NCBI GenBank assembly: GCA_019057375.1
Contig: DXJF01000154.1
Span: 1 to 14,128 of the forward strand
Origin: Candidatus Heimdallarchaeota archaeon
Lineage (GTDB): Archaea > Asgardarchaeota > Heimdallarchaeia > Heimdallarchaeales > Heimdallarchaeaceae
Direction of reading: 5' to 3'
Length of the DNA: 14,128 bases
In this document: in pieces, positions 1 through 14,128 of the stretch
How positions within the stretch are numbered: position 1 is the first letter of the stretch
Layout of the letters: each line of letters begins with the position of its first letter
Program-made: the position numbers and the translations under genes
Notes under the pieces: generated by a model
Told to the model about the DNA's origin: nothing
Databases searched by the model: none
The model's input: the letters and a program-made list of their open reading frames with translations, nothing else

Positions 1-375
1 GTAAATCCTTTAAACCTCGATATTGTTCGCAAGTGGGCGAATGAAAATGGTGTTAGTCCTATTTTTATTCTTCCAGGTTTTAAAAAATTTTACAAAACTT
101 TTCAAAATTACAATGACGTAATTCTAATAGATCCTCAAATATACGATGATATCGCTATTCTAGAATATGCTAGACAATTTAGAGCACCAATTCTCTCTAA
201 CGATAAATATAGGGAATTTAGAAAAATGTTTTATGATCTAGACTTTAATAGAGTCTTCCCCTTTGTTATAGAAAGAGGGAGATTGATGACAAACGCAGTC
301 GAACATCTACCTCTGCAAAGAATAGATTTTCCGTCTTTGTCCACTATTAATGAGTACTTGGGAGGTTTCAATTAA
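1..375 (+). CDS. NYN/PIN-domain ribonuclease, Zc3h12a/Regnase (PRORP-like NYN) family; 5'-truncated by the window edge
   Basis: Frame 1 is open from base 1 to TAA at 373-375: VNPLNLDIVRKWANENGVSPIFILPGFKKFYKTFQNYNDVILIDPQIYDDIAILEYARQFRAPILSNDKYREFRKMFYDLDFNRVFPFVIERGRLMTNAVEHLPLQRIDFPSLSTINEYLGGFN*. YDD (142-150) followed by ILSNDKYREF (SND at 196-204) matches the acidic YDD...SNDxYRD pattern of Regnase-type NYN nucleases. The stop overlaps the viperin ATG (TAATG). Not in the ORF track because the start lies outside the window. Confidence 0.75.
   Translation, partial: VNPLNLDIVRKWANENGVSPIFILPGFKKFYKTFQNYNDVILIDPQIYDDIAILEYARQFRAPILSNDKYREFRKMFYDLDFNRVFPFVIERGRLMTNAVEHLPLQRIDFPSLSTINEYLGGFN
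361..366 (+). promoter_or_regulatory. Shine-Dalgarno site for viperin
   Basis: GGAGGT 8 nt upstream of ATG 375, inside the last codons of the NYN gene. Confidence 0.65.
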
Positions 376-1259
376 TGGGTTGCGAACAAAAACATCTCAA
401 TCATACAAATGAATACTTTCCATTGGTCAGTGTGAACTGGCATTTATGGCCTCGTTGCTTGAATAACTGTAAGTTCTGTTTTGGAACCTTCAACGAGATT
501 AAATCTGTTTTGACTAAAGAAGAAGCATTGAGAATACCATCTGTCCTTAAATCTGCAGGAACAGAGAAATTATCTTTTACTGGTGGGGAACCATTACTCT
601 GTCCTCATTTGGGAGATTTAATCATAGAAGCTAAGAATCTTGATTTGACTACAATGCTGATTACAAGTGGTTCTTTATTAACAAAGAAATTTATCGAAGA
701 GTACAGTTCTTACATTGATTGGATCGCTTTAAGTGTAGATAGCTCAAATGAAGAGACACAATATAAACTTGGAAGAGGTTCTGGAAATCATATCCAAAAA
801 ATTAAAGAAATAGTACAAGATATTCATATAGCTGGTATCAATCTTAAAATAAACACAGTTGTTACTAGTTTGAACTGGGAAGAAGAGATGTCTGAATTGA
901 TTAGGGAGCTTAGTCCTCAAAGGTGGAAAGTATTTCAAGTTTTATCAGTTAAAGGACAAAATGATGACTATTTTCAATCTCTTCAAATTTCCAATAAGCA
1001 ATTTGAGACCTTCATTAGTATGCATAAAAATCTAAATCCAGTTGCTGAAAATAATAAAATTATGAGAGGATCCTATCTAATGCTTGATGCACTTGGGAGA
1101 TTCTTTCAGAACTCTAAAGGATATCTAGAATATAGCAACTCTATTTTAGGAACTAATCCACAAGAAGCTTTAGATAAAGTTGGATGGGATTATCAAAAAT
1201 TCCTGAAGAGAGGAGGAAATTATAATTGGAATTTAAAAATGAAGGAGGAGCTGTTCTAA
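375..1259 (+). CDS. pVip: Prokaryotic viperin (RSAD2-like radical SAM ddhNTP synthase), antiviral
   Basis: SVNWHLWPRCLNNCKFCF (CxxxCxxC at 456-479), KLSFTGGEP, DWIALSVDS, KINTVV, RWKVFQVL, GQND, ENN..MRGSYLMLDALGRFF and C-terminal KFLKRGGNYNW. This is the full viperin motif series and differs from MoaA. GGAGG RBS at 361-365. Confidence 0.93.
   Translation: MGCEQKHLNHTNEYFPLVSVNWHLWPRCLNNCKFCFGTFNEIKSVLTKEEALRIPSVLKSAGTEKLSFTGGEPLLCPHLGDLIIEAKNLDLTTMLITSGSLLTKKFIEEYSSYIDWIALSVDSSNEETQYKLGRGSGNHIQKIKEIVQDIHIAGINLKINTVVTSLNWEEEMSELIRELSPQRWKVFQVLSVKGQNDDYFQSLQISNKQFETFISMHKNLNPVAENNKIMRGSYLMLDALGRFFQNSKGYLEYSNSILGTNPQEALDKVGWDYQKFLKRGGNYNWNLKMKEELF
1241..1250 (+). promoter_or_regulatory. Shine-Dalgarno site for the helicase
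   Basis: GAAGGAGGAG within the viperin 3' end, 10 nt upstream of ATG 1261. Confidence 0.6.
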
Positions 1260-1260
1260 T

Positions 1261-4014
1261 ATGGCATATTTATACTATGAAAATCTACCTGATGTCTATT
1301 CATCAGAAGTTGCTATTTCAATTATGTCAAACACTTATAATGCAGTAAAACCTTACATAGATTTCATAGAAAAAATTAGAATATCTGAAAAAAGAAAGAT
1401 AATTAGTTTAATAGTCGACTATTTTCCTTTAGAAGATCTTCTTGCAGAGGAAAGAGAATTAATTAGAAATCAGATGGATGAAGAATTAAAGGAAGATGAA
1501 TATGAAATAGAAAGAAATTATTCAAAACAACTTAAACGAGTTATTAAGCTAGTTAACAAAGGAGAAGGAGTGCTTTATAAAATTCTTGAAGATGAAGATG
1601 ATGAGGGTTTTGATAGAAAAAAGGAGCGATTCTTGAATGCTGAAAAAGTATACCCCAATAGAAGTCTTCGGAGTCCAAAAAGAATAGAAGTACTAACCAG
1701 CTATTCACCATATGATATACTTGTATTAAAATCTAAAGATCTTAAAGGTGATAATACGCGAAGAAGATTATTTCTACGTGCTAATCTTTCACAATATGGC
1801 ATTATACGAGATTCTTTAGAACAACTACTGAACAAACCTGTTTCTCATAATCGCAATCTAATAAGATTATTTGAGAATACTAACAATGTAAAATTTAATA
1901 ATTTTACACCTATTAAACTAAATGAAGACGAATGGATTTTTCTAACAGATAACAATCGATCTGGTAATTCAATGCAAAGAGAATTTGTAGAAATAGCTCT
2001 TAATACACCTGATTATGCAATTCTTGAGGGACCACCTGGTTCTGGAAAAACAACAACAATATGTGAACTAATATTTCAAGCACTAAAACAAGGTAAACGC
2101 ATACTACTAGTTGCTTCTACCCACGTAGCAGTTGATAATGTATTAGAAAAATTAATGGATGAAAAAACTGATTTATACAATACCATCAATAATGTTGTTC
2201 TACCCATACGTATTGGTCGAACAGATAGAATTTCTGATCAAGCTTCAAAATATCATTTAGATGCATTTTGGTTAAGTAAGAGTGAAGAATTACGAAATAA
2301 GATATCTAGAATAAAAGACAAAACAAAATCACAAAGAATGTTTTTAGAATTGCTAAATAATCGAAATTTGTATCCTCCTGAATATTCAAAAAGAGTTTTT
2401 GTACGCGCAGCCAATCTTGTATGTGGAACAACAATCGGTATTTTGAAACATCCTGAGATTCAGAAGCTTCAAAGACAAAATAAAGTTACAAATAAACCAT
2501 ACGATTACCTGATTTTGGATGAAGCAAGTAAAACAACTTTCCAAGAATTCTTGGTACCTGCATTACTAGCAGAGAAATTTATCATTGTAGGAGACGTTAA
2601 ACAGCTAGCACCTTTTGTAGATGAGGAAGGTGTTACGGGTAATGTGTCAATGGCACACCCAAATGAAGGTGAATTTATAGCTCTTATTAACAATATTAGA
2701 AATGCTCAAAATTCTCATAAAAAACCAATTAAATGTCTTAAAGTCCTTAATAAAAATCTGACATCTGTAAATGAAGATAAAATTCTTGCACTCGAAAAAG
2801 CTTTTAGTATACCAATTTACCTTTTGAAAGAAAATCAAGAAATAGACAAAACCAAACTGTTTGGTTCTACATTAATCATGGGAACAATAAATGCAATTAG
2901 CAATTACTCTCGTATATTGCCACTTGGAATTAATTGGATAAGTCTAGATGATTCTCAAATAATTCATATAAGTGAGTCAAAATTTCTAAAAAATATCAAG
3001 CAATTCCAAAGAAAGCATTCATATGTAAAAAATAAACTGGAAAACCATAATAACGCTTTTTCTAATGATGAGAATTGGAATGATGCAGTAAGTTGGAGAT
3101 TGATAAGGGATTTCGAGTTAAGGAATCTAAACGATGATAGATATTTAAAACAGATTGAGCATTTGCTTCCAAACTACATGGATGAAAAAGAGCGAACTAA
3201 AATTCTGAAAGTATTAAACCAAATTAAACGACTTTCCTTCCCCTCAATTATAGAGTTACTTCAGAAGGGTTTTGAGAGAAATAGAAAACAAATAGAGAAA
3301 GATATAGGTTTAAGCATAACAGACGGTCTTTCTAAAACAGTTCTCAAAAGTAGACACAGAATTCTGAAGTTTCAACATAGAATGCATCCTGAGATTTCTT
3401 CATTTCCGCGGACAAATTTGTATGACAAAGAAGCATTATTCGATCTACCTGATATTCAAAATGATAGGGTTTTCTCTTATGATAACTATAGTAATAGATC
3501 TCTTTGGATTGATGTGCAGCTATCTAGTAAAGAAAAGAGGAAAATGAAGAAGAATAAAAATGAGAAAGAAGCTCAAGTAATTGTAAATGAAATAAAGGAA
3601 TTATTGGATTTTACAAAAGATTACAAAAAACCAGATAATTCTCCTTGGGAGATTGCGATTTTGCCTTTTTATAATTCTCAAGAAAGCCTTATTAGAAAAA
3701 AACTTCAATCAATGTTTAAAACCCGTAGAATCAGAACATTTTACGCGAAAAATAAGAATGCTATTATTGAATTATGTGTTGTGGATCGATTTCAAGGACA
3801 TGAAGCTGATATTGTTTTTCTTTCTCTTGTAAAGAACAGGGGTTTAGGTTTCTTAGATACCCCTAATCGACTAAATGTTGCTCTTACTAGAGCTAAGTAT
3901 CAATTACTTATTGTTGGAAATAAGAATCATTTCAGCAATCAAAAAAGATCAGAACTACTAAGGAAATTAGCTGTGGAAACTCCAAAGAAAATGAGTTATG
4001 GTGATGTTGAATGA
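1261..4014 (+). CDS. SF1B helicase, UPF1/DNA2-NAM7 family (AAA_11 + AAA_12), Mokosh MkoA/MkoC-like helicase lacking a kinase domain
   Basis: Walker A GPPGSGKT (2029-2052), ASTHVAVDN (Ia), CGTTIG, LILDEAS (Walker B, 2518-2529), IVGDVKQLAP (III), QHRMHPEI (3373-3396), VVDRFQGHEADIV (V), NRLNVALTRAK (VI). GAAGGAGGAG RBS at 1241-1250. Confidence 0.92.
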   Translation: MAYLYYENLPDVYSSEVAISIMSNTYNAVKPYIDFIEKIRISEKRKIISLIVDYFPLEDLLAEERELIRNQMDEELKEDEYEIERNYSKQLKRVIKLVNKGEGVLYKILEDEDDEGFDRKKERFLNAEKVYPNRSLRSPKRIEVLTSYSPYDILVLKSKDLKGDNTRRRLFLRANLSQYGIIRDSLEQLLNKPVSHNRNLIRLFENTNNVKFNNFTPIKLNEDEWIFLTDNNRSGNSMQREFVEIALNTPDYAILEGPPGSGKTTTICELIFQALKQGKRILLVASTHVAVDNVLEKLMDEKTDLYNTINNVVLPIRIGRTDRISDQASKYHLDAFWLSKSEELRNKISRIKDKTKSQRMFLELLNNRNLYPPEYSKRVFVRAANLVCGTTIGILKHPEIQKLQRQNKVTNKPYDYLILDEASKTTFQEFLVPALLAEKFIIVGDVKQLAPFVDEEGVTGNVSMAHPNEGEFIALINNIRNAQNSHKKPIKCLKVLNKNLTSVNEDKILALEKAFSIPIYLLKENQEIDKTKLFGSTLIMGTINAISNYSRILPLGINWISLDDSQIIHISESKFLKNIKQFQRKHSYVKNKLENHNNAFSNDENWNDAVSWRLIRDFELRNLNDDRYLKQIEHLLPNYMDEKERTKILKVLNQIKRLSFPSIIELLQKGFERNRKQIEKDIGLSITDGLSKTVLKSRHRILKFQHRMHPEISSFPRTNLYDKEALFDLPDIQNDRVFSYDNYSNRSLWIDVQLSSKEKRKMKKNKNEKEAQVIVNEIKELLDFTKDYKKPDNSPWEIAILPFYNSQESLIRKKLQSMFKTRRIRTFYAKNKNAIIELCVVDRFQGHEADIVFLSLVKNRGLGFLDTPNRLNVALTRAKYQLLIVGNKNHFSNQKRSELLRKLAVETPKKMSYGDVE
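4000..4005 (+). promoter_or_regulatory. Archaeal-type Shine-Dalgarno site (GGTGAT) for the 367 aa gene
   Basis: GGTGAT 5 nt before ATG 4011, complementary to the AUCACC of the 16S 3' end. This form is commonly used in archaea. Confidence 0.55.
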
Positions 4015-5114
4015 AAATTAGAATGAAGAAAGTAGTACCTATAAATGTTTATGAGGTAAATATGACCGTTTTTATTAGTGAAAAGAGACCTGAAATTCTA
4101 CCTATAATTCAAGCAGTTAATGAAGCGAATGAAAAGGGTAAAGCAGCTATTAAATATCTTAGTGAAGTACTTTTTATTGGTTTTCCCTTAAAATTTTCAG
4201 AAAATATCCTTGAGGAGTTGAAATTGCTTGAACTTGTAAACGAAAACGGAGAACTAACACCAAGAGGGTATGAATCTCTAACTACAAGTAACATAATGGA
4301 ACCAGATAAAGGTTCTTTTCAGATTAAAGTCGTAAACGATCCTCTTATTCCTAGCTGTATTATTGCTGTAAAACAATTAGATCCTAATGCCCGAAAAGAA
4401 ATTTTCAGTTCAAAAGAGAAGAGAGAAGAAAAGAAAATTCAGATACCAAAACACATTGTTAGTCAAAAAGGAAATCGATTTAAAACCCTTGATGAGAGAC
4501 AAACTCTAATTGATGTCCAAGAAATCGCTCCACGAGGTTCAATAGATAGAAGTGTTCAAGAAAAACTTGAGTATTATCTGTCTTTTGAAGGAAATGATTG
4601 GAAAGCAGAGGTTAGATATCGAAATAAATCTATTAGTCTTGAAGTTCCTGAATCCTTTGATGGAACTGCGATTATCAACTCTTTGCTTTTCTCTATCCAA
4701 AAGAACGTTGACATTTCCACATGGCGTGTACCACAGACCCCTTCTGCGTTAACAACTAAGGAATTACTGAATTTTATTAAGGATTTTCAGCTTAAAAAAA
4801 TAGAAATTCAAAACATAGGAATTTTTGATACCATAACTCTTAGAGATGTGTCAATATGTCCAGAGGATAATAAAACAGCAAAAGAATGGGCAATGAAGAT
4901 TTTTACTGAAACCCTCTCCAATTATCTTATTGATAGAGAATATCTGGTGAAATGGGGAGAAATAATTAATCAAAATAATGAATTGAAGAAGTTTCAAATA
5001 GAAATCCCATCTATGCATGAAGTTTTATCAAATTTAGATCCTGGGTCAAAAAAGTATTGGTTTTTACAGGCCCCATTTGACTTGAAATTAAATGAGTTGA
5101 TAATAAATGATTAA
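4011..5114 (+). CDS. Hypothetical protein with a possible N-terminal winged-helix; accessory subunit of the helicase-PLD module
   Basis: 367 aa ORF with ATGA overlap with the helicase stop, GGTGAT SD at 4000-4005 and an 8-nt overlap with the PLD gene. The segment NILEELKLLELVNENGELTPRGYESL resembles a wHTH recognition helix plus wing. No catalytic motif recognised. Confidence 0.7.
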   Translation: MKIRMKKVVPINVYEVNMTVFISEKRPEILPIIQAVNEANEKGKAAIKYLSEVLFIGFPLKFSENILEELKLLELVNENGELTPRGYESLTTSNIMEPDKGSFQIKVVNDPLIPSCIIAVKQLDPNARKEIFSSKEKREEKKIQIPKHIVSQKGNRFKTLDERQTLIDVQEIAPRGSIDRSVQEKLEYYLSFEGNDWKAEVRYRNKSISLEVPESFDGTAIINSLLFSIQKNVDISTWRVPQTPSALTTKELLNFIKDFQLKKIEIQNIGIFDTITLRDVSICPEDNKTAKEWAMKIFTETLSNYLIDREYLVKWGEIINQNNELKKFQIEIPSMHEVLSNLDPGSKKYWFLQAPFDLKLNELIIND

Positions 5115-6630
5115 AACAGAAATTTTGACTAAAATTGTTGAACAAAATACCGAAATTCCTTCTCATTGGAGGATTATAAATACTGACGATTATTCTCTCC
5201 CCTCCACTCGAAGAATAATTCCTATGGGTAATGGAAATCAAAAATTTAAGAAACTTCTAATCGATTCAATTAATGATGCTACAAGCCATGTGATGCTATG
5301 TTCTTTCCTTTTAAGTGATCAAGATATAATAGACAGTCTACTCAAGGCAAGTGATAAGGGTGTAAGATGTTATCTTATGTTTTCTACAGAGGCTCAACTT
5401 TCGAAAGAATATAAAGAAGAAGTTTCTGATTTTGATTTGCATGTTTTAAACAAGCATAAAGAAATGCTAGATAAATTAGCTGGTAAAGCACTAACTAGAA
5501 CTAGTGATCATTTACATGCAAAATTCCTTCTAATTGATGTAGGAACAGAAAAAGAAGAAGGTTACATGTCAACAGCTAATTTTACACAGGAAGCTTTGAC
5601 AAGAAATGAAGAGGTTGGAATTGTACTAAAGAAGACTGAAATAAAGACTATTGCTCATTTCTTCAATGTAGGTTTCTGGGAAGAAAGCAAAAATGAACTT
5701 ATTAGAAAAGGATCTTGGGATGATGTAAGAAATTTAGATATCAAAACTATTGAGAGCAATTCCGAAGTTGTTTTTACAACTTCAAAAGACAGAGGAATGA
5801 AGGAAAGAATAAAAGAGATTATTGTTGGAGCAGATAATGAACTCTTAGTGAGTAGTTTTGGATTTGGAGAAAACAATGATCTTGTAAAATTATTGATTAA
5901 ACATTCTGAACAGAGGAAGCTATCAATCCTAACAAGACCTAGAGAAAAAACTCATAACTTCTTATCAAAAATAGAAAAAGAAAACACTGTAGCATATGCT
6001 TTTCCATTCTTACATGTTAAAATGATTCTAGATCCAGCAAAGAGGATAGGAATTATTATGACTGCAAACTTTGAAGATAGGGGAATGGAAACAGGATATG
6101 AAGTTGGTATAGTGGTTCAAAATGAAGACTTTGATGAAGCACTACATATATTTCAAAATTGGATTGAGTCAGCATCTATGATGTGGAACAGCTCAACTAA
6201 ATTGTCGTTTCTAGATGAAGGATTAATCAGAGTTCCTAAAGGTAGATCATTGGAACAAAAAGAAGTAAAAAACTATAGTGAAATAGATATGCCCCAAGAA
6301 AAACCAAATGATTTGCGATTAATGCAAAAATTAGTTTCTAAGACTCTTGAATATGAAGTCAAAAAAAGTGATATTCTAATAAAAGAAATGAGACTCAAAA
6401 AAGAAATATTACCTCCTAGGCTACCTGAAAGTGCCCAAGAAGTGATTTTTAGTGATCTTTTTTTATCAAAGAAACAGAAGAGTAAAGGAGAAAAACTTGA
6501 GTTTAAATTTCCATTTAAGACATATCTATACCAAGGGCAGTATTATGTTGTCATCAAGAAATGGGCTGATTTAGAAAGAATAAGTTCTTTTCCAGATTTC
6601 AAAAAACACACAAAGATAGTAATTAAGTAA
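5107..6630 (+). CDS. Phospholipase D-superfamily nuclease with two PLD domains (MkoB-like)
   Basis: First domain: ...HVMLCSFLLSD...GVRCYLM...HAKFLLID (canonical HxKxxxxD, 5515-5538)...STANFT...NEEVG. Second domain: LLVSSFGFG...HVKMILD (HxKxxxD, 6013-6033)...MTANF...YEVGI. About 150 C-terminal aa unassigned. Confidence 0.88.
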   Translation: MIKTEILTKIVEQNTEIPSHWRIINTDDYSLPSTRRIIPMGNGNQKFKKLLIDSINDATSHVMLCSFLLSDQDIIDSLLKASDKGVRCYLMFSTEAQLSKEYKEEVSDFDLHVLNKHKEMLDKLAGKALTRTSDHLHAKFLLIDVGTEKEEGYMSTANFTQEALTRNEEVGIVLKKTEIKTIAHFFNVGFWEESKNELIRKGSWDDVRNLDIKTIESNSEVVFTTSKDRGMKERIKEIIVGADNELLVSSFGFGENNDLVKLLIKHSEQRKLSILTRPREKTHNFLSKIEKENTVAYAFPFLHVKMILDPAKRIGIIMTANFEDRGMETGYEVGIVVQNEDFDEALHIFQNWIESASMMWNSSTKLSFLDEGLIRVPKGRSLEQKEVKNYSEIDMPQEKPNDLRLMQKLVSKTLEYEVKKSDILIKEMRLKKEILPPRLPESAQEVIFSDLFLSKKQKSKGEKLEFKFPFKTYLYQGQYYVVIKKWADLERISSFPDFKKHTKIVIK

Positions 6631-6641
6631 AACAAATAGCT

Positions 6642-7748
6642 CTATATAAAAAAGTCAATTTTCTTTTGTTTTTTATCAGATGGAAATGATACGGTTTTTA
6701 TTCTTTCTTTAAATTCATTAGGAATATATTTTTCTATGTTTTTTGAGAATTTTGGAGCAAATAAATAATATTCAATATTTGATGTATCTATATTGAAACG
6801 TTCTCGAAGTTTATGTAACCATTTTGCATATCTTATAACTTGTTCAATTTCTCCTTTTCCTGCTTGTTTATTCTTAAGTTCTATAATTACATTAGGTAAT
6901 GTTCCTTCTGCAATTTCCTGTTCTCCATAATAACATACATCAGCTCTGTCCATCTGATATGATTTAAAAGGAGAGATGGGAACTTGACGTAAAATATTCA
7001 TTTTTAGAGGTTTTAATTCATCAGGCAATAAATTAGGATTGGCAATGATTGTTGCTTCCAACTGTGCTTCGATTTCTGCTATATGTAAATCTTGTATGGA
7101 AAATGAAGTTGAATACTCTTTCATTTTACCTTGTAGTTTGACATCCTCAATCATTTCATACTCCTCTGTTCCTTCATTATTCTCAGTTAGGAGATTAAGT
7201 AAAATTCTAGTTTCTCCAGGGGTCATTATGCAAAATCCCATATTCATTATACTAATAGATGGTAGAGGATAAGGATATCTCCCTAATTCAAAGTAAAGAA
7301 CATCAGAAGTAATGAAATTACCTTGAATCCCAATATTATCCTCAAATCTAATTAAGAAATGTTGACATCTTTCTGTTTCATTGAAAATAAAGATTCCCTT
7401 ATCTTTTGTTTCCTTATATCTAGTTCTTATTGATTCATCCCAAACTAATTGTGCATTTGCCTTCCTACCTATAGGACCATAGTTACCATTAACAAAAAAT
7501 GATGGCTCTGTTCCTTCACCTTTGATCTGACCTCCATAGTAGATTTTTCTTTTCAGAAAGAAGAAAACATGATCTCCTTCTCTACAACATGCATAATCTG
7601 CCATTGTTCGATAATAAACTCTTTTTGAACCTCTAGTTTCTATATGCGGGGGTAAATGTTGTCCATATATTCCTTTATTTAGATAGAGTTTCAAAGTTTC
7701 GATATCATAAAGTGTGATAAAAAGTCCCTTTTGTGACAAATGAATCAA
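6642..7748 (-). CDS. EVE/PUA-like domain fused to a NucS/EndoMS-like PD-(D/E)xK endonuclease; putative modification-dependent (type IV-like) restriction or repair nuclease
   Basis: C-terminal half has EAQLEATIIANPNLL, RQ, ADV, IIELK (ELK at 6873-6881) and IEQVIRY, typical of NucS-like PD-(D/E)xK domains. N-terminal half (LYLNKGIYG...CREGDHVFFF..RKIYYGGQI...F..LDVLYFE-like segment) resembles EVE/PUA. Start is TTG (7748-7746) with an in-frame stop at 7769-7767. Confidence 0.72.
   Translation of the reverse strand: MIHLSQKGLFITLYDIETLKLYLNKGIYGQHLPPHIETRGSKRVYYRTMADYACCREGDHVFFFLKRKIYYGGQIKGEGTEPSFFVNGNYGPIGRKANAQLVWDESIRTRYKETKDKGIFIFNETERCQHFLIRFEDNIGIQGNFITSDVLYFELGRYPYPLPSISIMNMGFCIMTPGETRILLNLLTENNEGTEEYEMIEDVKLQGKMKEYSTSFSIQDLHIAEIEAQLEATIIANPNLLPDELKPLKMNILRQVPISPFKSYQMDRADVCYYGEQEIAEGTLPNVIIELKNKQAGKGEIEQVIRYAKWLHKLRERFNIDTSNIEYYLFAPKFSKNIEKYIPNEFKERIKTVSFPSDKKQKKIDFFI
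6659..6674 (+). terminator. Putative archaeal oligo-T terminator of the viperin/helicase/PLD operon
   Basis: TTTTCTTTTGTTTTTT begins 29 nt after the PLD stop (6630). It lies antisense to the KKQKK codons of the convergent nuclease gene. Confidence 0.3.
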
Positions 7749-7905: not shown

Positions 7906-8826
7906 ATGAACAACAATCCTCAAAAAAATGGTCAAAATAGCAGACCGAAGCAATCTCGTTTAACTTCTTATATCTCTAATGGAGAGAATACTAGGGAAAT
8001 TGAGTACGCAATTCTTGCCCATCCTATTGTTAAGTGGGCAGGAGGAAAAAGAGGATTAATTGAGAAGTATAAACCATATTTACCTAAGGATTTCAATAAA
8101 TACTATGAACCGTTTTTTGGTGGGGGAGCTATATTCTTTCATCTCTTTTCGATTGGTAGAGTAAAAGAAGCTAAAATTTCTGATATTAATTCCGAACTTG
8201 TCAATATGTATAAAGTAGTCAAAACTAAGGTTGATGATTTAGTAGAAGAGCTTAAATCAGGAAAATATTTAAATGATAAAGATATTTTTTACGAAATTAG
8301 AGCTGAAGAACCAGAAGAGCCTGTTCTAAGAGCTGCACGCTTAATTTACCTAAATCGAACATGTTTCAATGGTCTTTATAGAGTTAATAAACAAGGAAAA
8401 TTCAATGTTCCATTTGGAAAATACCCGAAAAACGTTAAGATCTTGAATGAAGAAAATCTAAGAAATGTGAATCAATGTCTACAGGATGTTGAATTAACAT
8501 CTGAAGATTTCGAAAAATCTGTTAAAGATGCAAAGGAAGGAGACTTTGTTTATTTTGATCCACCATATATGCCTTTAACTGAGACAGCTAATTTCACAGA
8601 TTATACCTCTAAAGGTTTTGGAATAAAGGAACAAGAAAGACTAGCTAAAGTATTCAAAGAACTAGATGAAAGAGGGTGTTATGTTATGGAAAGCAATTCT
8701 GACGTTCCTAAAATTGCTGAGTTATACGAAGGATATGAAATCAAGAAAGTTCATGCAAGAAGATTCATTAGTAGTGATCCTAATGGGAGAGGAGGAGTTC
8801 TAGAATCTTTGATTTTGAATTATTAG
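7906..8826 (+). CDS. dam: Dam/DpnM-family N6-adenine DNA methyltransferase (D12 class, likely GATC)
   Basis: PIVKWAGGKR, YYEPFFGGGAIFF (motif I), ISDINSEL, YLNRTCFNGLYRVNKQGKFNVPFGKY (Dam-type target-recognition segment), DFVYFDPPY (DPPY at 8557-8568), VMESNS. It has a ~30 aa N/Q-rich N-terminal extension. Confidence 0.93.
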   Translation: MNNNPQKNGQNSRPKQSRLTSYISNGENTREIEYAILAHPIVKWAGGKRGLIEKYKPYLPKDFNKYYEPFFGGGAIFFHLFSIGRVKEAKISDINSELVNMYKVVKTKVDDLVEELKSGKYLNDKDIFYEIRAEEPEEPVLRAARLIYLNRTCFNGLYRVNKQGKFNVPFGKYPKNVKILNEENLRNVNQCLQDVELTSEDFEKSVKDAKEGDFVYFDPPYMPLTETANFTDYTSKGFGIKEQERLAKVFKELDERGCYVMESNSDVPKIAELYEGYEIKKVHARRFISSDPNGRGGVLESLILNY

Positions 8827-8827
8827 C

Positions 8828-9700
8828 TTAAAGAATCTCATTATTTTTGGAACTATACTTGAATTTTGTAATGTTTTCATCATCTCTGGGTTTTCTAAAA
8901 ACATATAGATGTTCATGCATGATCAAATGAAAATTGTATTTCATGCTTTGTTTCCTCCATTGAGGAGTACTTGCACAGTTCCATTGGTGTTTAATGATAT
9001 CTTCTCTCAAGATAAAACCTGTATCTAGAAAAGTTTTCAGAACATAAGCAGAAAGAGGAACATAGTGTCTGTGCTTTCGAGTGTCACCTATTAAGATAGC
9101 TAGAAACTTATCTCCTTTGAGAACACGGTAACATTCTCGAGCTATTTTCTTCATCTCGTCAGTAAAATATCTAACACTTCCAATTGATGAGAGATCTTGG
9201 AGATTGTTCTCTGAATATCTTATTATATTTAGATAGGGAGGGTGAGTACAGATTAAATCAATAGAATTATCATCAATTTTATCTAGTTTTCTAGCGTCAC
9301 CTAAGTATAAAATGTGAGAAGAATCATTGGTATTAGGAACTTGAGAAATTCTTTCTTTAGCGACTTCAAGAGGTTTCTTGTTGATGTCGACGCCAATACT
9401 ATTTCTACCTGTTAGTTTAGCTTCAATAATAGTTGTACCACTACCAACCATTGGATCTAAAACCAAATCTCCTTGCTCAGAATATCTTTCAATAACATTC
9501 CTAGGAATTTGAGGAGCAAAATTTCCTCGGTAATCTCCTTTATGAGTAGCCCATTTACCTCTATTAGGAAAAGACCAAATAGTTGTTGCTTCAAGCTCAA
9601 AATCATTTGTGTCTTGCTGATTTGTACTAGTTTCAGTTTTTAAATCAGGGTTATCTTTATAAAATTCTTTCATTCCTTTTGGACCTTCTAATTTGGGCAT
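8828..9700 (-). CDS. Amino (N4-C/N6-A) DNA methyltransferase-like, N6_N4_Mtase/TRM11-like fold
   Basis: TIWSFPNRGKWATHKGDYRGNFAPQIP, VLDPMVGSGTT (motif I, 9457-9434), GVDIN, GDAR, IDLICTHPPY (motif IV variant, 9247-9233), HEHLYVFRK. Substrate (m4C vs m6A, DNA vs RNA) cannot be fixed from the motifs. Confidence 0.82.
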   Translation of the reverse strand: MPKLEGPKGMKEFYKDNPDLKTETSTNQQDTNDFELEATTIWSFPNRGKWATHKGDYRGNFAPQIPRNVIERYSEQGDLVLDPMVGSGTTIIEAKLTGRNSIGVDINKKPLEVAKERISQVPNTNDSSHILYLGDARKLDKIDDNSIDLICTHPPYLNIIRYSENNLQDLSSIGSVRYFTDEMKKIARECYRVLKGDKFLAILIGDTRKHRHYVPLSAYVLKTFLDTGFILREDIIKHQWNCASTPQWRKQSMKYNFHLIMHEHLYVFRKPRDDENITKFKYSSKNNEIL

Positions 9701-11278: not shown

Positions 11279-13891
11279 TTATTGTTTCACTCTTTGAATT
11301 GAAATTATTCTATAAAGACCTCTAGAAATTCTTTCATACAAAATTGTTTCTTCAAAACTCCATTCTTTCATCATTCTTTCTTTTCTTAAAATAGCCTTTA
11401 CTATTTGTTTAATAAATTTACCAACTTTTCGATGTAAAACTCTTAATTTACTAATTTCCAAATGCATTGAAACATAGTCTTCAGATATTATATGATCATT
11501 TATAACTTCACCAATTAAACGGAGATCGTCCTGAACTTGAGGTCCAATAACACTACCTCTTATCCACGAATATACTGTTTGTATGGTTTTCTTACCCCCT
11601 TTACTCTTATAACAGTTGTAGAATTCTTTATATGTTATCTCGTTATATTCAATATATTCACTTGTTCTTTTCTTCCAGTATTCTATAAATTCCTTATCTA
11701 TATTTTCTTCGAAACTATATGTATCTAAAATTGTATCAAGAAGTGTTTTTCTCTCATCTCCTCCAAGGAGAACAATTAACTCGCCTGGTTTGAGATTTTT
11801 AGGTGTAATTTCTATAATACTTCCATCGTCTTCATCTATTGTTAAAAATGTTTTATTAATGTCTAAATACTTTGTTATTATTCCTTCGTCTCCTTCTTTT
11901 TTAAGTAGAACTTGATAAGATAAACTAGTTCTTGTTTTAGATATTTCTTTTTCTACTTGATTTAAAATCTCTTTTGATATCTTATCAAGTGATTTTTGAT
12001 CATTTTCGTATTCTCGCAAATCATCATAATTATTTGTTGAACTAAATATGTTATTAATAATTTCATTGATTGCTGGTAGCTCATTATGAATAGAAATTTT
12101 ATCATTAATTTCTTCGTCTTCAATGTCCCCCTCACTTGATTTTATCTTAATAAATTGTTCCTGTTCCAGTTCCTGTTCCTCTAAAGTGTTTTCATCTTTT
12201 TGGATAAATTCATCAAGAATTTCATTGTTAGTAATTTTTAAATACCTAAATATTTCTTGTAAATAGTTGATAGCTTTTTCTTGTTTAGCTAGAGTAAAAT
12301 CAGAAATTAGGTTAATTTGTTTTTTTGCAATATCATAATTTAATCCTTCATATGCTAAAATAATTATTTTGTTATATGGTCTTAATAATTCTGAAAGGTA
12401 ATTGAATCTTATTGGACCAGGAAGTATCAATATGCAATTTTTTCTTTCAAAAATTGAATTATATATCTCCTTCATAGTAAAAACTCTAATATTAGTATTA
12501 TCTTTGAAATATTCTCTAATCCTATTTCTTTCATAAGGTGAATTAGTTGAAATTATTATATCTTTTTGATCAAGTTCAGAAACTAATTCTCTTAATTTAG
12601 TTTCCTTGGAAGTTCTTTCATAGCTTGTAATTTCATTAAATCTCTTTACTTCCTTTAATTCACTATATAAGTTAAATGCATAATCACAGATTTTCTCTAA
12701 TATTTTTGAATTTTTATTAGATTCTTCTGTAGTTGCATCATTTGTTAGTTCAATTATCTGTGGAATTGACAGGTATCTTAGTTCTCCTTTACGGGATAAA
12801 AATAATGTTTTAAATTTAGAAGGATTTAATACCATATTTTGAAGATTATTTACTATTTTGAGAAGTGTATAAACCTTTAAACCATTTTTCAAAGATTCTT
12901 TATCAATTAAAGCTCTTAATTTCTTGATTTCGAGGTAATAAAAGTCAATATTTCCCCCTTTTAAAGTTGGTTCTAAAACTGATATGTTTTCCTTATGTTC
13001 ATAATCGCTTTTTGAATCTAAATTATATGCATTAAGTAAGGACCAATTTATATTTGAAATTTCATTTTCTTGATAATATTCTAATGATTTTTCCCTTAAC
13101 ATTCTATTCATGGATATGAACTTATTTCCAAGAGGAAGTACAAAACAATTGAATTCCCTTTTTAAGTTCTCAATAAATGAAGACTCAGGATTTGAGAAAT
13201 GAAAAACAAATCGAAAATCTAATTTCTTATATTTTTGCAGCCACTTTACAAATTCATTGTATTTGTAATTTGAGTGTACAAATCGGTCAACATTCTCAAT
13301 AATACAAAGATCTGTCTTAATTGTAGCTTTTTTATCAATTATCTCGTCTTCAACTTCCAAGCTTTCAATGTTTTCTGCTATTCTTGATTTCTCTTCAGAA
13401 TTATCAAATAGTAGTTTAGCTGTTTCAGTTTTTGCTAGATTATCTTTTAAGAATTTTATGTATTGTTCTCTATATGTTTTTGTTATCCATTTAGAATATA
13501 ATTTCACGGAAATTGTTGAATTTTCAACACAACCAACTGGATAATTCATAAAATAAAAGTGATTATATGAATCTTGTAACAAAGTAAAATTTTTGACGTG
13601 AAGGTCAATTGGGCGTTTTGAAATTGAACTATTTTTTTGACTCAGAACATAGACAGACTTATTACAAGTTTTCAAATAAAGCAATGTTATTAGAGCTAGA
13701 GGTTTTAAAATAGAGGAGTTATAAACAATTATTAAGTTATTATTAGTAATTACTCTGAAGAAAATATTCAATAAGAAATTTGTAACAGGGCTTAGGTTGT
13801 AAGATATTTTTATGATTTTTGGATAATTATTTCTACTTCTAGGTTCAAATCTGTAAACATCATTTATAAATTTATCATGCCATGAACTCAT
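11279..13891 (-). CDS. DrmE-like large protein (degenerate helicase-like N-terminus, acidic linker, DrmE-type C-terminal domain)
   Basis: 870 aa. The C-terminal pattern LKPGELIV...YWKKR...FY..YK.KGG..T.QTVYSWIRGSVIGP...DLRLIG...I.KLRVLHR resembles DrmE-family C-termini as recalled. Walker-B-like CIIENVDRF but no Walker A. Acidic linker EEQELEQEQ...EGDIEDEE. GAGGAG RBS at 13907-13902. Confidence 0.6.
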   Translation of the reverse strand: MSSWHDKFINDVYRFEPRSRNNYPKIIKISYNLSPVTNFLLNIFFRVITNNNLIIVYNSSILKPLALITLLYLKTCNKSVYVLSQKNSSISKRPIDLHVKNFTLLQDSYNHFYFMNYPVGCVENSTISVKLYSKWITKTYREQYIKFLKDNLAKTETAKLLFDNSEEKSRIAENIESLEVEDEIIDKKATIKTDLCIIENVDRFVHSNYKYNEFVKWLQKYKKLDFRFVFHFSNPESSFIENLKREFNCFVLPLGNKFISMNRMLREKSLEYYQENEISNINWSLLNAYNLDSKSDYEHKENISVLEPTLKGGNIDFYYLEIKKLRALIDKESLKNGLKVYTLLKIVNNLQNMVLNPSKFKTLFLSRKGELRYLSIPQIIELTNDATTEESNKNSKILEKICDYAFNLYSELKEVKRFNEITSYERTSKETKLRELVSELDQKDIIISTNSPYERNRIREYFKDNTNIRVFTMKEIYNSIFERKNCILILPGPIRFNYLSELLRPYNKIIILAYEGLNYDIAKKQINLISDFTLAKQEKAINYLQEIFRYLKITNNEILDEFIQKDENTLEEQELEQEQFIKIKSSEGDIEDEEINDKISIHNELPAINEIINNIFSSTNNYDDLREYENDQKSLDKISKEILNQVEKEISKTRTSLSYQVLLKKEGDEGIITKYLDINKTFLTIDEDDGSIIEITPKNLKPGELIVLLGGDERKTLLDTILDTYSFEENIDKEFIEYWKKRTSEYIEYNEITYKEFYNCYKSKGGKKTIQTVYSWIRGSVIGPQVQDDLRLIGEVINDHIISEDYVSMHLEISKLRVLHRKVGKFIKQIVKAILRKERMMKEWSFEETILYERISRGLYRIISIQRVKQ

Positions 13892-14128
13892 TTTCTATAA
13901 TCTCCTCAGAAACTAAAATCAAATAATCGAAGATTTTTGAAACATCCCGCGCTAGGGTCCCTTTAACAGTTATACCAAGTTCAAAATTCTTCATGAATGA
14001 ATTTTTTCTTATTTCACCACTCCCGATATAAACAGTTTTTTTATCTATTATCATGATTTTTGCATGGGTGCTACTTGCTAAATATCCATTTTGCTGATGA
14101 TAATAATTATAGATTCTAAAATTGTAAA
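13875..14128 (-). CDS. PLD-family nuclease (DrmC/Nuc-like), C-terminal part; 5' end outside the window
   Basis: Manual translation of the minus strand from 14126: YNFRIYNYYHQQNGYLASSTHAKIMIIDKKTVYIGSGEIRKNSFMKNFELGITVKGTLARDVSKIFDYLILVSEEIIENEFMA* (TGA at 13877-13875). HxKxxxxD at 14066-14043, then YIGS and NFELGI. Overlaps the DrmE-like ATG by 17 nt. Not in the ORF track. Confidence 0.85.
   Translation of the reverse strand, partial: YNFRIYNYYHQQNGYLASSTHAKIMIIDKKTVYIGSGEIRKNSFMKNFELGITVKGTLARDVSKIFDYLILVSEEIIENEFMA

Follow-up and report, generated by a model that had tools for sequence, protein, structure and literature searches.

A viperin operon with a probable Csa3-type regulator and a helicase–Unk4–PLD cassette in a Heimdall-group Asgard archaeon

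Introduction

Prokaryotic viperins (pVips) were reportedly described by Bernheim et al. in 2021 in systems with or without a nucleotide kinase. The viperin analysed here is encoded by the second gene of a five-gene operon at the beginning of a 14,128-bp contig (DXJF01000154.1; the whole of it is called the window) of a Heimdall-group Asgard archaeon. It is established for the family that viperin converts nucleoside triphosphates (NTPs) into 3′-deoxy-3′,4′-didehydro-NTPs (ddhNTPs), which act as chain terminators of viral RNA synthesis. Asgard viperins guard E. coli against phage, acting on their own (PMC11291487). pVip systems are also cited from Shomar et al. (bioRxiv 10.1101/2023.09.13.557418), a survey of viperin gene neighbourhoods gives nucleotide kinases and gene fusions as the only partners, and a TPR-protein-associated viperin system is listed in another paper.

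The genes downstream of this viperin call for comparison with two further systems. Mokosh type I consists of MkoA, a helicase–kinase, and MkoB, a phospholipase D (PLD) protein, and its defence requires the active sites of both the helicase ATPase and the PLD domain (Millman et al., bioRxiv 10.1101/2022.05.11.491447). In CoCoNuT systems, the gene of the UPF1-like helicase CnuH typically precedes that of CnuE, which joins an elongated winged helix to a nuclease, the latter made up of two PLD domains in type III-C CoCoNuTs; CnuH-family helicases are frequently accompanied by RtcR-type CARF regulators (Bell et al., eLife 2024, PMC11090510).

The window operon has likenesses to all of these systems and is identical to none. 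Its favoured interpretation, with a rough probability of 0.6, is an inducible composite operon of separable antiviral modules under the control of a Csa3-type regulator. Such a co-regulated composite is preferred because the viperin and the three-gene cassette that follows it (helicase, Unk4 and PLD nuclease; the trio) each also occur alone.

Results

Organization of the operon

The window (C109) is an entire contig of a 3.47-Mb assembly that is 89% complete (genome G000); relatives of the host include Ca. Heimdallarchaeum aukensis PM71. Because the window is the whole contig, the first gene is truncated by the assembly and not by biology. The operon consists of the following open reading frames (ORFs):

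1–375, plus strand, open at the 5′ end: NYN RNase, C-terminal 124 residues of about 157 (PF11977)
375–1259, plus strand: pVip viperin (NF038283, PADLOC pVip)
1261–4014, plus strand: UPF1-like superfamily 1 (SF1) helicase, 917 residues (AAA_11/AAA_12, PADLOC MkoA)
4011–5114, plus strand: Unk4 winged-helix protein, 367 residues (structure model; no family match)
5107–6630, plus strand: tandem-PLD nuclease, 507 residues; it contains two HKD motifs, and its C-terminal extension has no known fold (PLDc_2)

The initial annotation, which was made from the DNA letters, described these five same-strand genes and their junctions, and both coordinates and junction letters were re-read exactly as it gave them: TAATG at 373–377, a single nucleotide at 1260, ATGA at 4011–4014 and ATGATTAA at 5107–5114. 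All four junctions are overlaps or a 1-nt gap, and the five genes form a single tightly spaced unit. Its count of Shine–Dalgarno motifs at three of the four junctions was too high: GGAGG is clear at 361–365 and 1244–1248, and the other two starts are preceded by partial matches (GGTGA at 4000–4004). A scan for sigma-70 promoters and terminators gave counts at the level of shuffled sequence, the model being unsuited to an archaeon, and no Rfam family or tRNA was found. The four homology assignments made from the letters (NYN, viperin, UPF1-like helicase and PLD) were borne out by matches to family models.

The viperin exceeds the curated cut-off of its NCBIfam model by a wide margin (NF038283, viperin_w_prok, 286.6 bits against 180) and matches the PADLOC pVip model at 2.9e-83. 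Its radical-SAM CxxxCxxC motif is formed by C28, C32 and C35 in the segment CLNNCKFC, and the enzyme is expected to make ddhNTP chain terminators. The viperin start overlaps the stop of the NYN gene within TAATG, with GGAGG 10 nt upstream. A related viperin ORF of 559 residues (L065, 2248–3927) has an N-terminus about 260 residues longer than those of its relatives, which could reflect a gene fusion or a wrongly assigned start.

The missing N-terminus of the NYN RNase was found by extending the locus upstream, as the initial annotation had suggested. A 2669-bp contig of the same genome (C30; locus L050) ends where the window begins, and it supplied both this N-terminus and a divergent gene for a Csa3-family regulator with a CARF domain and a winged helix-turn-helix (wHTH). 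The terminal open frame of C30 is 34 codons long (MMTTEIQ...LLIVDGLNVLKYHNGDV) and contributes the first 33 codons of the RNase. C30 ends in ...GACGTAA and the window starts with GTAAAT, a 4-nt overlap (GTAA) that is in frame. The C30 frame and the window fragment align to residues 5–39 and 43–160 of the 163-residue orthologue in a sister genome (L022), with the valine common to both fragments taking a single alignment column. This colinearity points to an RNase of about 157 residues in which the first catalytic motif is present. The protein carries DGLNV (on C30), YDDIAI and SNDKYRE, which correspond to the DGxN, DD and SND catalytic acidic motifs.

The match of the RNase to PF11977 is slightly above the cut-off (2.1e-5; 24.7 bits against 23). 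The single protein had no match in the Protein Data Bank (PDB) by phmmer, and a profile built from six Asgard homologues matched structures of KHNYN and ZC3H12A/B/C at 1.2e-5 to 3.2e-5. The protein consists of the NYN domain only, without the CCCH zinc finger or further domains of Regnase-1. The parallels drawn earlier with the pairs Regnase/UPF1 and MOV10L1/Zucchini hold as a likeness between domains and do not extend further.

The helicase, Unk4 and PLD proteins

The helicase matches AAA_11 (1.8e-30) and AAA_12 (2.5e-39), and its motifs GPPGSGKT, DEAS, GDVKQL and QGHEADIV are intact. Its best PADLOC match is MkoA (2.8e-82), with residues 35–456 covering profile positions 449–834 of 1112; the match to the IGHMBP2-family NCBIfam model (3.1e-55) is below the cut-off. 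No kinase family was matched in Pfam or PADLOC.

Unk4 has no match in Pfam, PADLOC or NCBIfam. Its family comprises 1003 clusters at E<=1e-3 and is present in bacteria. Its AlphaFold model has a predicted local distance difference test score (pLDDT) of 88.7 and contains a winged helix (residues 25–93) that resembles 2x4h_A (VIA-align, Z 9.8, rmsd 1.8, 67 residues aligned) and that of the Csa3 protein 6wxq_B (Z 7.5, rmsd 1.9, 65 aligned). Foldseek found no PDB match to the model at E<=0.001, and residues 95–367, modelled alone (pLDDT 90.1), gave no match with Z>=5 among 48,161 chains. In the ESM Atlas, the fold is found only in unnamed bacterial clusters, and a word-indexed protein search returned a single close relative. 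A search for longer, fused forms of the Unk4–PLD type found none, which is weak evidence.

The PLD protein matches PLDc_2 over two stretches (1.4e-22), and the residues H137, K139, D144 and N158 of the first motif and H303, K305 and N321 of the second are invariant across 20 homologues. Unk4 and the PLD protein are predicted to form a complex with an ipSAE of 0.81, compared to 0.00 for the best control. Among solved complexes, 58 of 80 reach this mark, and among mismatched pairs 2 of 110; these counts are rough, since custom alignments were used for the prediction. Contacts agree between runs by at least 88%, with partner pLDDTs of at least 81. In the model, the interface is formed by the C-terminal helix of Unk4 (residues 344–366), which lies on the first PLD domain and contains the most conserved motif of the Unk4 family, YWFLQAPxDL. 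The prediction supports docking of the Unk4 C-terminal helix on the PLD protein. Unk4 is no bystander: no other part of the trio is as specific a marker of it, and the modelling predicts that Unk4 is an adaptor which binds the PLD protein.

The PLD gene was also considered as a DISARM DrmC. DrmC is its best PADLOC match (2.5e-23, against 1.6e-6 for MkoB), but the protein is below the cut-off of the NCBIfam DrmC model (NF038319, 63.6 bits against 133) and its partners are always an SF1 helicase and Unk4. Nor is it the DrmC of the DrmE gene at 11279–13891, which has a PLD fragment of its own upstream; the trio recurs without DrmE. A match to NCBIfam PLuB_AAA was likewise discarded, being far below the cut-off of 999 bits; of 14 control genomes, the model also matches 11, and such a system is not named in any paper.

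The trio resembles Mokosh type I in combining a UPF1-like, COG1112-type helicase, for which MkoA is the best match, with a PLD nuclease. Unlike MkoA, which has a Ser/Thr kinase domain, the operon helicase matches only from profile position 449 onward. Furthermore, the trio has three genes instead of two, its PLD protein, which contains two HKD motifs, is a weak match to MkoB, and Unk4 has no PADLOC model. The module had been called Mokosh-like; with no kinase domain, an obligatory third gene and this weak MkoB match, it falls outside the definition of Mokosh type I. The order of helicase, winged-helix protein and tandem PLD recalls that described for CnuH–CnuE of CoCoNuT systems, and an RtcR-like gene accompanies bacterial trios, as discussed below. 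In contrast to CnuE, the winged helix and the PLD domains reside on separate polypeptides, which are predicted to bind each other. None of the ten window proteins matches AAA_5 or McrBC, and the window holds no McrB or McrC (CnuB or CnuC) gene. Compared with CnuH and CnuE by their description, the trio looks like CnuH with a split CnuE and without the McrBC part.

Conservation of the locus

The survey covered 400 Asgard genomes, related genomes among them, in which families carry labels (f1, f4, f5, f7 and f20). Unk4 occurs in 22 of the 400 and pVip in 29. The order helicase–Unk4–PLD is kept in all 20 Asgard Unk4 loci that were fetched, and three bacterial contigs, one from Treponema and two from metagenomes, hold a colinear trio. 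A pVip gene lies immediately 5′ of the helicase in 11 Asgard genomes (nine complete loci and two truncated ones) that belong to the Heimdallarchaeia families f1, f4, f5 and f7, with 42–79% identity to the window viperin. The two genes are tightly spaced in most of these loci: the 1-nt gap of the window compares to spacings between a 1-nt overlap and a 16-nt gap in G011, G015, G082 and G081. In three complete loci and a truncated one, a gene of the amino-acid-kinase family (PF00696), seen in family f4, lies between pVip and the helicase. Similarity of pVip and of helicase to their window counterparts drops in parallel across the loci, as expected of joint inheritance. A scan of viral contigs found no related locus, and a scan of metagenomes found one partial contig.

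These data bear on the simplest alternative, in which independent systems are merely adjacent in a defence island. The contig is indeed such an island, with a probable restriction–modification pair, another methylase, and a DrmE gene accompanied by a PLD fragment, as well as an OLD-like nuclease gene on C30. However, the combination is far from confined to this genome, its order and spacing being the same in all 11 genomes and four families over the range of pVip identities given above, while start and stop codons overlap and the pVip and helicase similarities fall together. Chance clustering is by now largely refuted by this recurrence and must be regarded as highly improbable.

In the helicase tree, eight of the nine pVip-linked helicases form one clade with a support of 99. 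The ninth is that of G081 (L062, 3471–10761), in which pVip groups with that of the family-mate G082, whereas the helicase falls among copies that have no viperin link and come from other Asgard families. With the pVip of a family-mate followed by the trio of another lineage, the tree indicates that the pVip–trio arrangement has formed, or was repaired, at least twice. The trio behind the G081 viperin seems to have been exchanged.

The initial annotation proposed an integrated system. In its present form, viperin ddhNTPs truncate viral transcripts, and the resulting 3′-ddh RNAs or stalled polymerases trigger or feed the helicase–Unk4–PLD proteins and the NYN RNase. The fixed gene order, with pVip first and tightly coupled to the helicase, is consistent with it, as are the retention of the pVip–trio linkage across four families and its re-formation with a different trio lineage in G081. 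NYN–pVip pairs also recur without the trio (L072, L073 and L076; the match in L068 is weaker, at 5.6e-4). On the other hand, both modules stand alone elsewhere: the trio lacks a pVip in 12 Asgard loci as well as in bacteria, and there are pVip genes without the trio. Asgard viperins protect E. coli by themselves (PMC11291487), and in none of the helicase, Unk4 and PLD proteins was a feature found that varies with pVip linkage. This coupling is considered unlikely. Of the proposed unit of viperin and trio, the recurrent clustering stands, whereas the two modules are separable.

The initial annotation knew of no described system that links viperin with an NYN RNase and a Mokosh-like module, and none was found in the papers searched. 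As in pVip systems, the viperin scores above the curated cut-off, and the PF00696 gene of family f4 echoes the known linkage of viperin to kinases. In contrast, the trio, the NYN RNase and Csa3 are absent as conserved viperin partners from the literature found on Asgard defence and viperin evolution.

In family f20 (L029, 5068–7032; equivalent positions in L034 and L035), two conserved genes lie between the regulator and the helicase and replace viperin. One encodes a protein of about 280 residues with a weak CARF match and the other a protein of about 370 residues with no match.

The Csa3-type regulator

Csa3 transcription factors are known to target cas genes and CRISPR arrays. The divergent gene on C30 lies 131 bp from the NYN start and encodes a 216-residue CARF–wHTH protein that passes the NCBIfam Csa3 model (TIGR01884, 62.5 bits against 60.2) and matches HFX_2341_N (1.9e-15) and, in its wHTH part, DUF6293_C (1.4e-6). 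It is the sole match to its regulator subfamily in the genome of the window. Similar to the Csa3 factors of Sulfolobales, it combines an N-terminal CARF domain with a winged helix behind it and is divergent to its putative target genes; unlike them, it neighbours a viperin/helicase/PLD operon, in a genome in which no Cas10 was found. A CARF model made from nine CARF–wHTH neighbours matches genes adjacent to the trio or to pVip in most of the loci for which upstream sequence is available, and lone pVip genes often face a CARF regulator. Five Heimdall intergenic regions have three blocks in common: TTGTATWATACAA, a second block with TATAAAA, and TTTAATAT. In two of the five, the palindrome TTGTATWATACAA in its exact form occurs only once in 19 kb; G011 and G015 have it in their orthologous intergenic regions. 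The C30 protein is probably the control element of the operon.

Two of the bacterial trios carry an RtcR-like CARF–sigma54 activator as a fourth gene (L055, 10738–11685, 1e-47; L056, 10901–12334, 1.6e-39). This link parallels that to Csa3 in Asgard archaea.

A Csa3-family regulator raises the possibility of a type III CRISPR accessory module, in which the regulator answers the cyclic oligoadenylate made by Cas10 and the operon provides second-line effectors. One solved Csa3 structure contains cyclic tetra-adenylate (cA4). In one locus (L031, 122–11923), the trio follows six closely spaced genes on the same strand, the last three of which encode RAMP, Cmr5 and RAMP proteins (cmr4–cmr5–cmr6), so that the trio appears to close a type III-B CRISPR operon at its 3′ end; a cas6 gene is found near the trio in L032, and G015 and G011 have Cmr2-like genes elsewhere in their genomes. 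Yet physical linkage to cas genes is seen in one of about 30 loci, and searches for Cas10 with TIGR02577, TIGR02578, PF22335 and a Heimdall Cmr2 were negative in five carriers: G000 (89% complete), G050, G074 (99% complete), G081 and G082. A role as a CRISPR accessory is, on balance, quite improbable.

Neighbouring genes

The operon is flanked by further genes, many with matches to defence families:

C30 (L050) 2–1693, plus strand: OLD-family protein, 563 residues (AAA_15/AAA_21 ATPase and OLD-like TOPRIM), convergent with the Csa3 gene
6642–7748, minus strand: 368-residue protein with a weak NucS-like nuclease match at its C-terminus (2.7e-6)
7906–8826, plus strand: Dam-class N6-adenine methyltransferase (PF02086, 4.2e-66)
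8828–9700, minus strand: N4/N6 DNA methylase, with homologues a few kb from the operon in L026 and L062
9893–11272, plus strand: 459-residue protein with weak radical-SAM/B12-binding matches (Pfam 6.6e-4, NCBIfam 2.2e-4)
11279–13891, minus strand: DrmE-family protein (76.8 bits against a cut-off of 80)
13875–14126, minus strand: C-terminal end of a PLD-domain protein, which precedes the DrmE gene and runs off the contig

The NucS-like protein and the divergent Dam-class methyltransferase are probably a type II restriction–modification pair. The DrmE gene and the PLD fragment look like a piece of a DISARM-like system with a PLD protein of its own.

Discussion

The Csa3-controlled composite operon could work as follows. 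The probable binding sites of the CARF–wHTH regulator are palindromes in the 131-bp intergenic region, and a nucleotide signal, which could be a cyclic oligoadenylate or a cyclic-phosphate RNA end, would cause the regulator to switch the operon. The products would be a minimal NYN endoribonuclease, a ddhNTP-making viperin and a helicase–adaptor–nuclease effector. In the latter, the UPF1-like SF1 helicase may translocate along RNA or single-stranded DNA, while Unk4 would tether the tandem-PLD nuclease to it by way of the conserved C-terminal helix. The contact between Unk4 and the PLD protein is predicted by the complex model; that between Unk4 and the helicase, as well as the substrate of the effector, are suggested by analogy with Mokosh and CnuH–CnuE. 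Viral nucleic-acid synthesis would be the common target of the modules, which would work in parallel and be held together mainly by shared regulation. A hand-over of substrate from viperin to the nuclease is possible in this scheme and is not required by it. Co-regulation fits the data at least as well as mechanistic coupling does.

Several points weigh against this interpretation. The evidence on this locus is computational throughout. The join of C30 to the window, on which the link to the regulator depends, is based on the 4-nt overlap and synteny and not on reads, and counts of the palindrome with mismatches allowed do not exceed chance expectation in DNA so rich in AT. That no Cas10 was found in the five genomes searched counts here as well. 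The related genomes of the survey are not independent samples, the score of the Unk4–PLD complex is the model's own confidence, with custom alignments behind the prediction, and the sequence does not settle whether RNA or DNA is targeted.

A more far-reaching proposal is an RNA-surveillance-type pathway in Heimdall-group archaea. A CARF switch would turn on viperin, the UPF1-like helicase and its adaptor would recognize ddh-terminated or stalled transcripts, and the PLD and NYN nucleases would destroy them. Such a pathway is distinctly unlikely on the present data. If it did exist, viperin, UPF1/MOV10, Regnase and PLD6-type activities, between which eukaryotes have no such link, would be joined in a prokaryotic forerunner.

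The three-gene helicase–adaptor–PLD cassette is defined here by its marker Unk4, with about 1000 clusters and no Pfam, PADLOC or NCBIfam family, and it connects Mokosh to the CnuH–CnuE pairs of CoCoNuT systems. The regulators found beside it suggest that the cassette is guarded by CARF transcription factors, which are of the Csa3 type in archaea and of the RtcR type in bacteria. Viperin is among the few immune enzymes thought to have been passed from Asgard archaea to eukaryotes. In the Heimdall group it is not a lone gene: it shares a conserved, regulator-linked operon with homologues of three further activities of RNA-level defence in eukaryotes, and the possible feeding of chain-terminated transcripts to a helicase–nuclease is now open to study at the bench.

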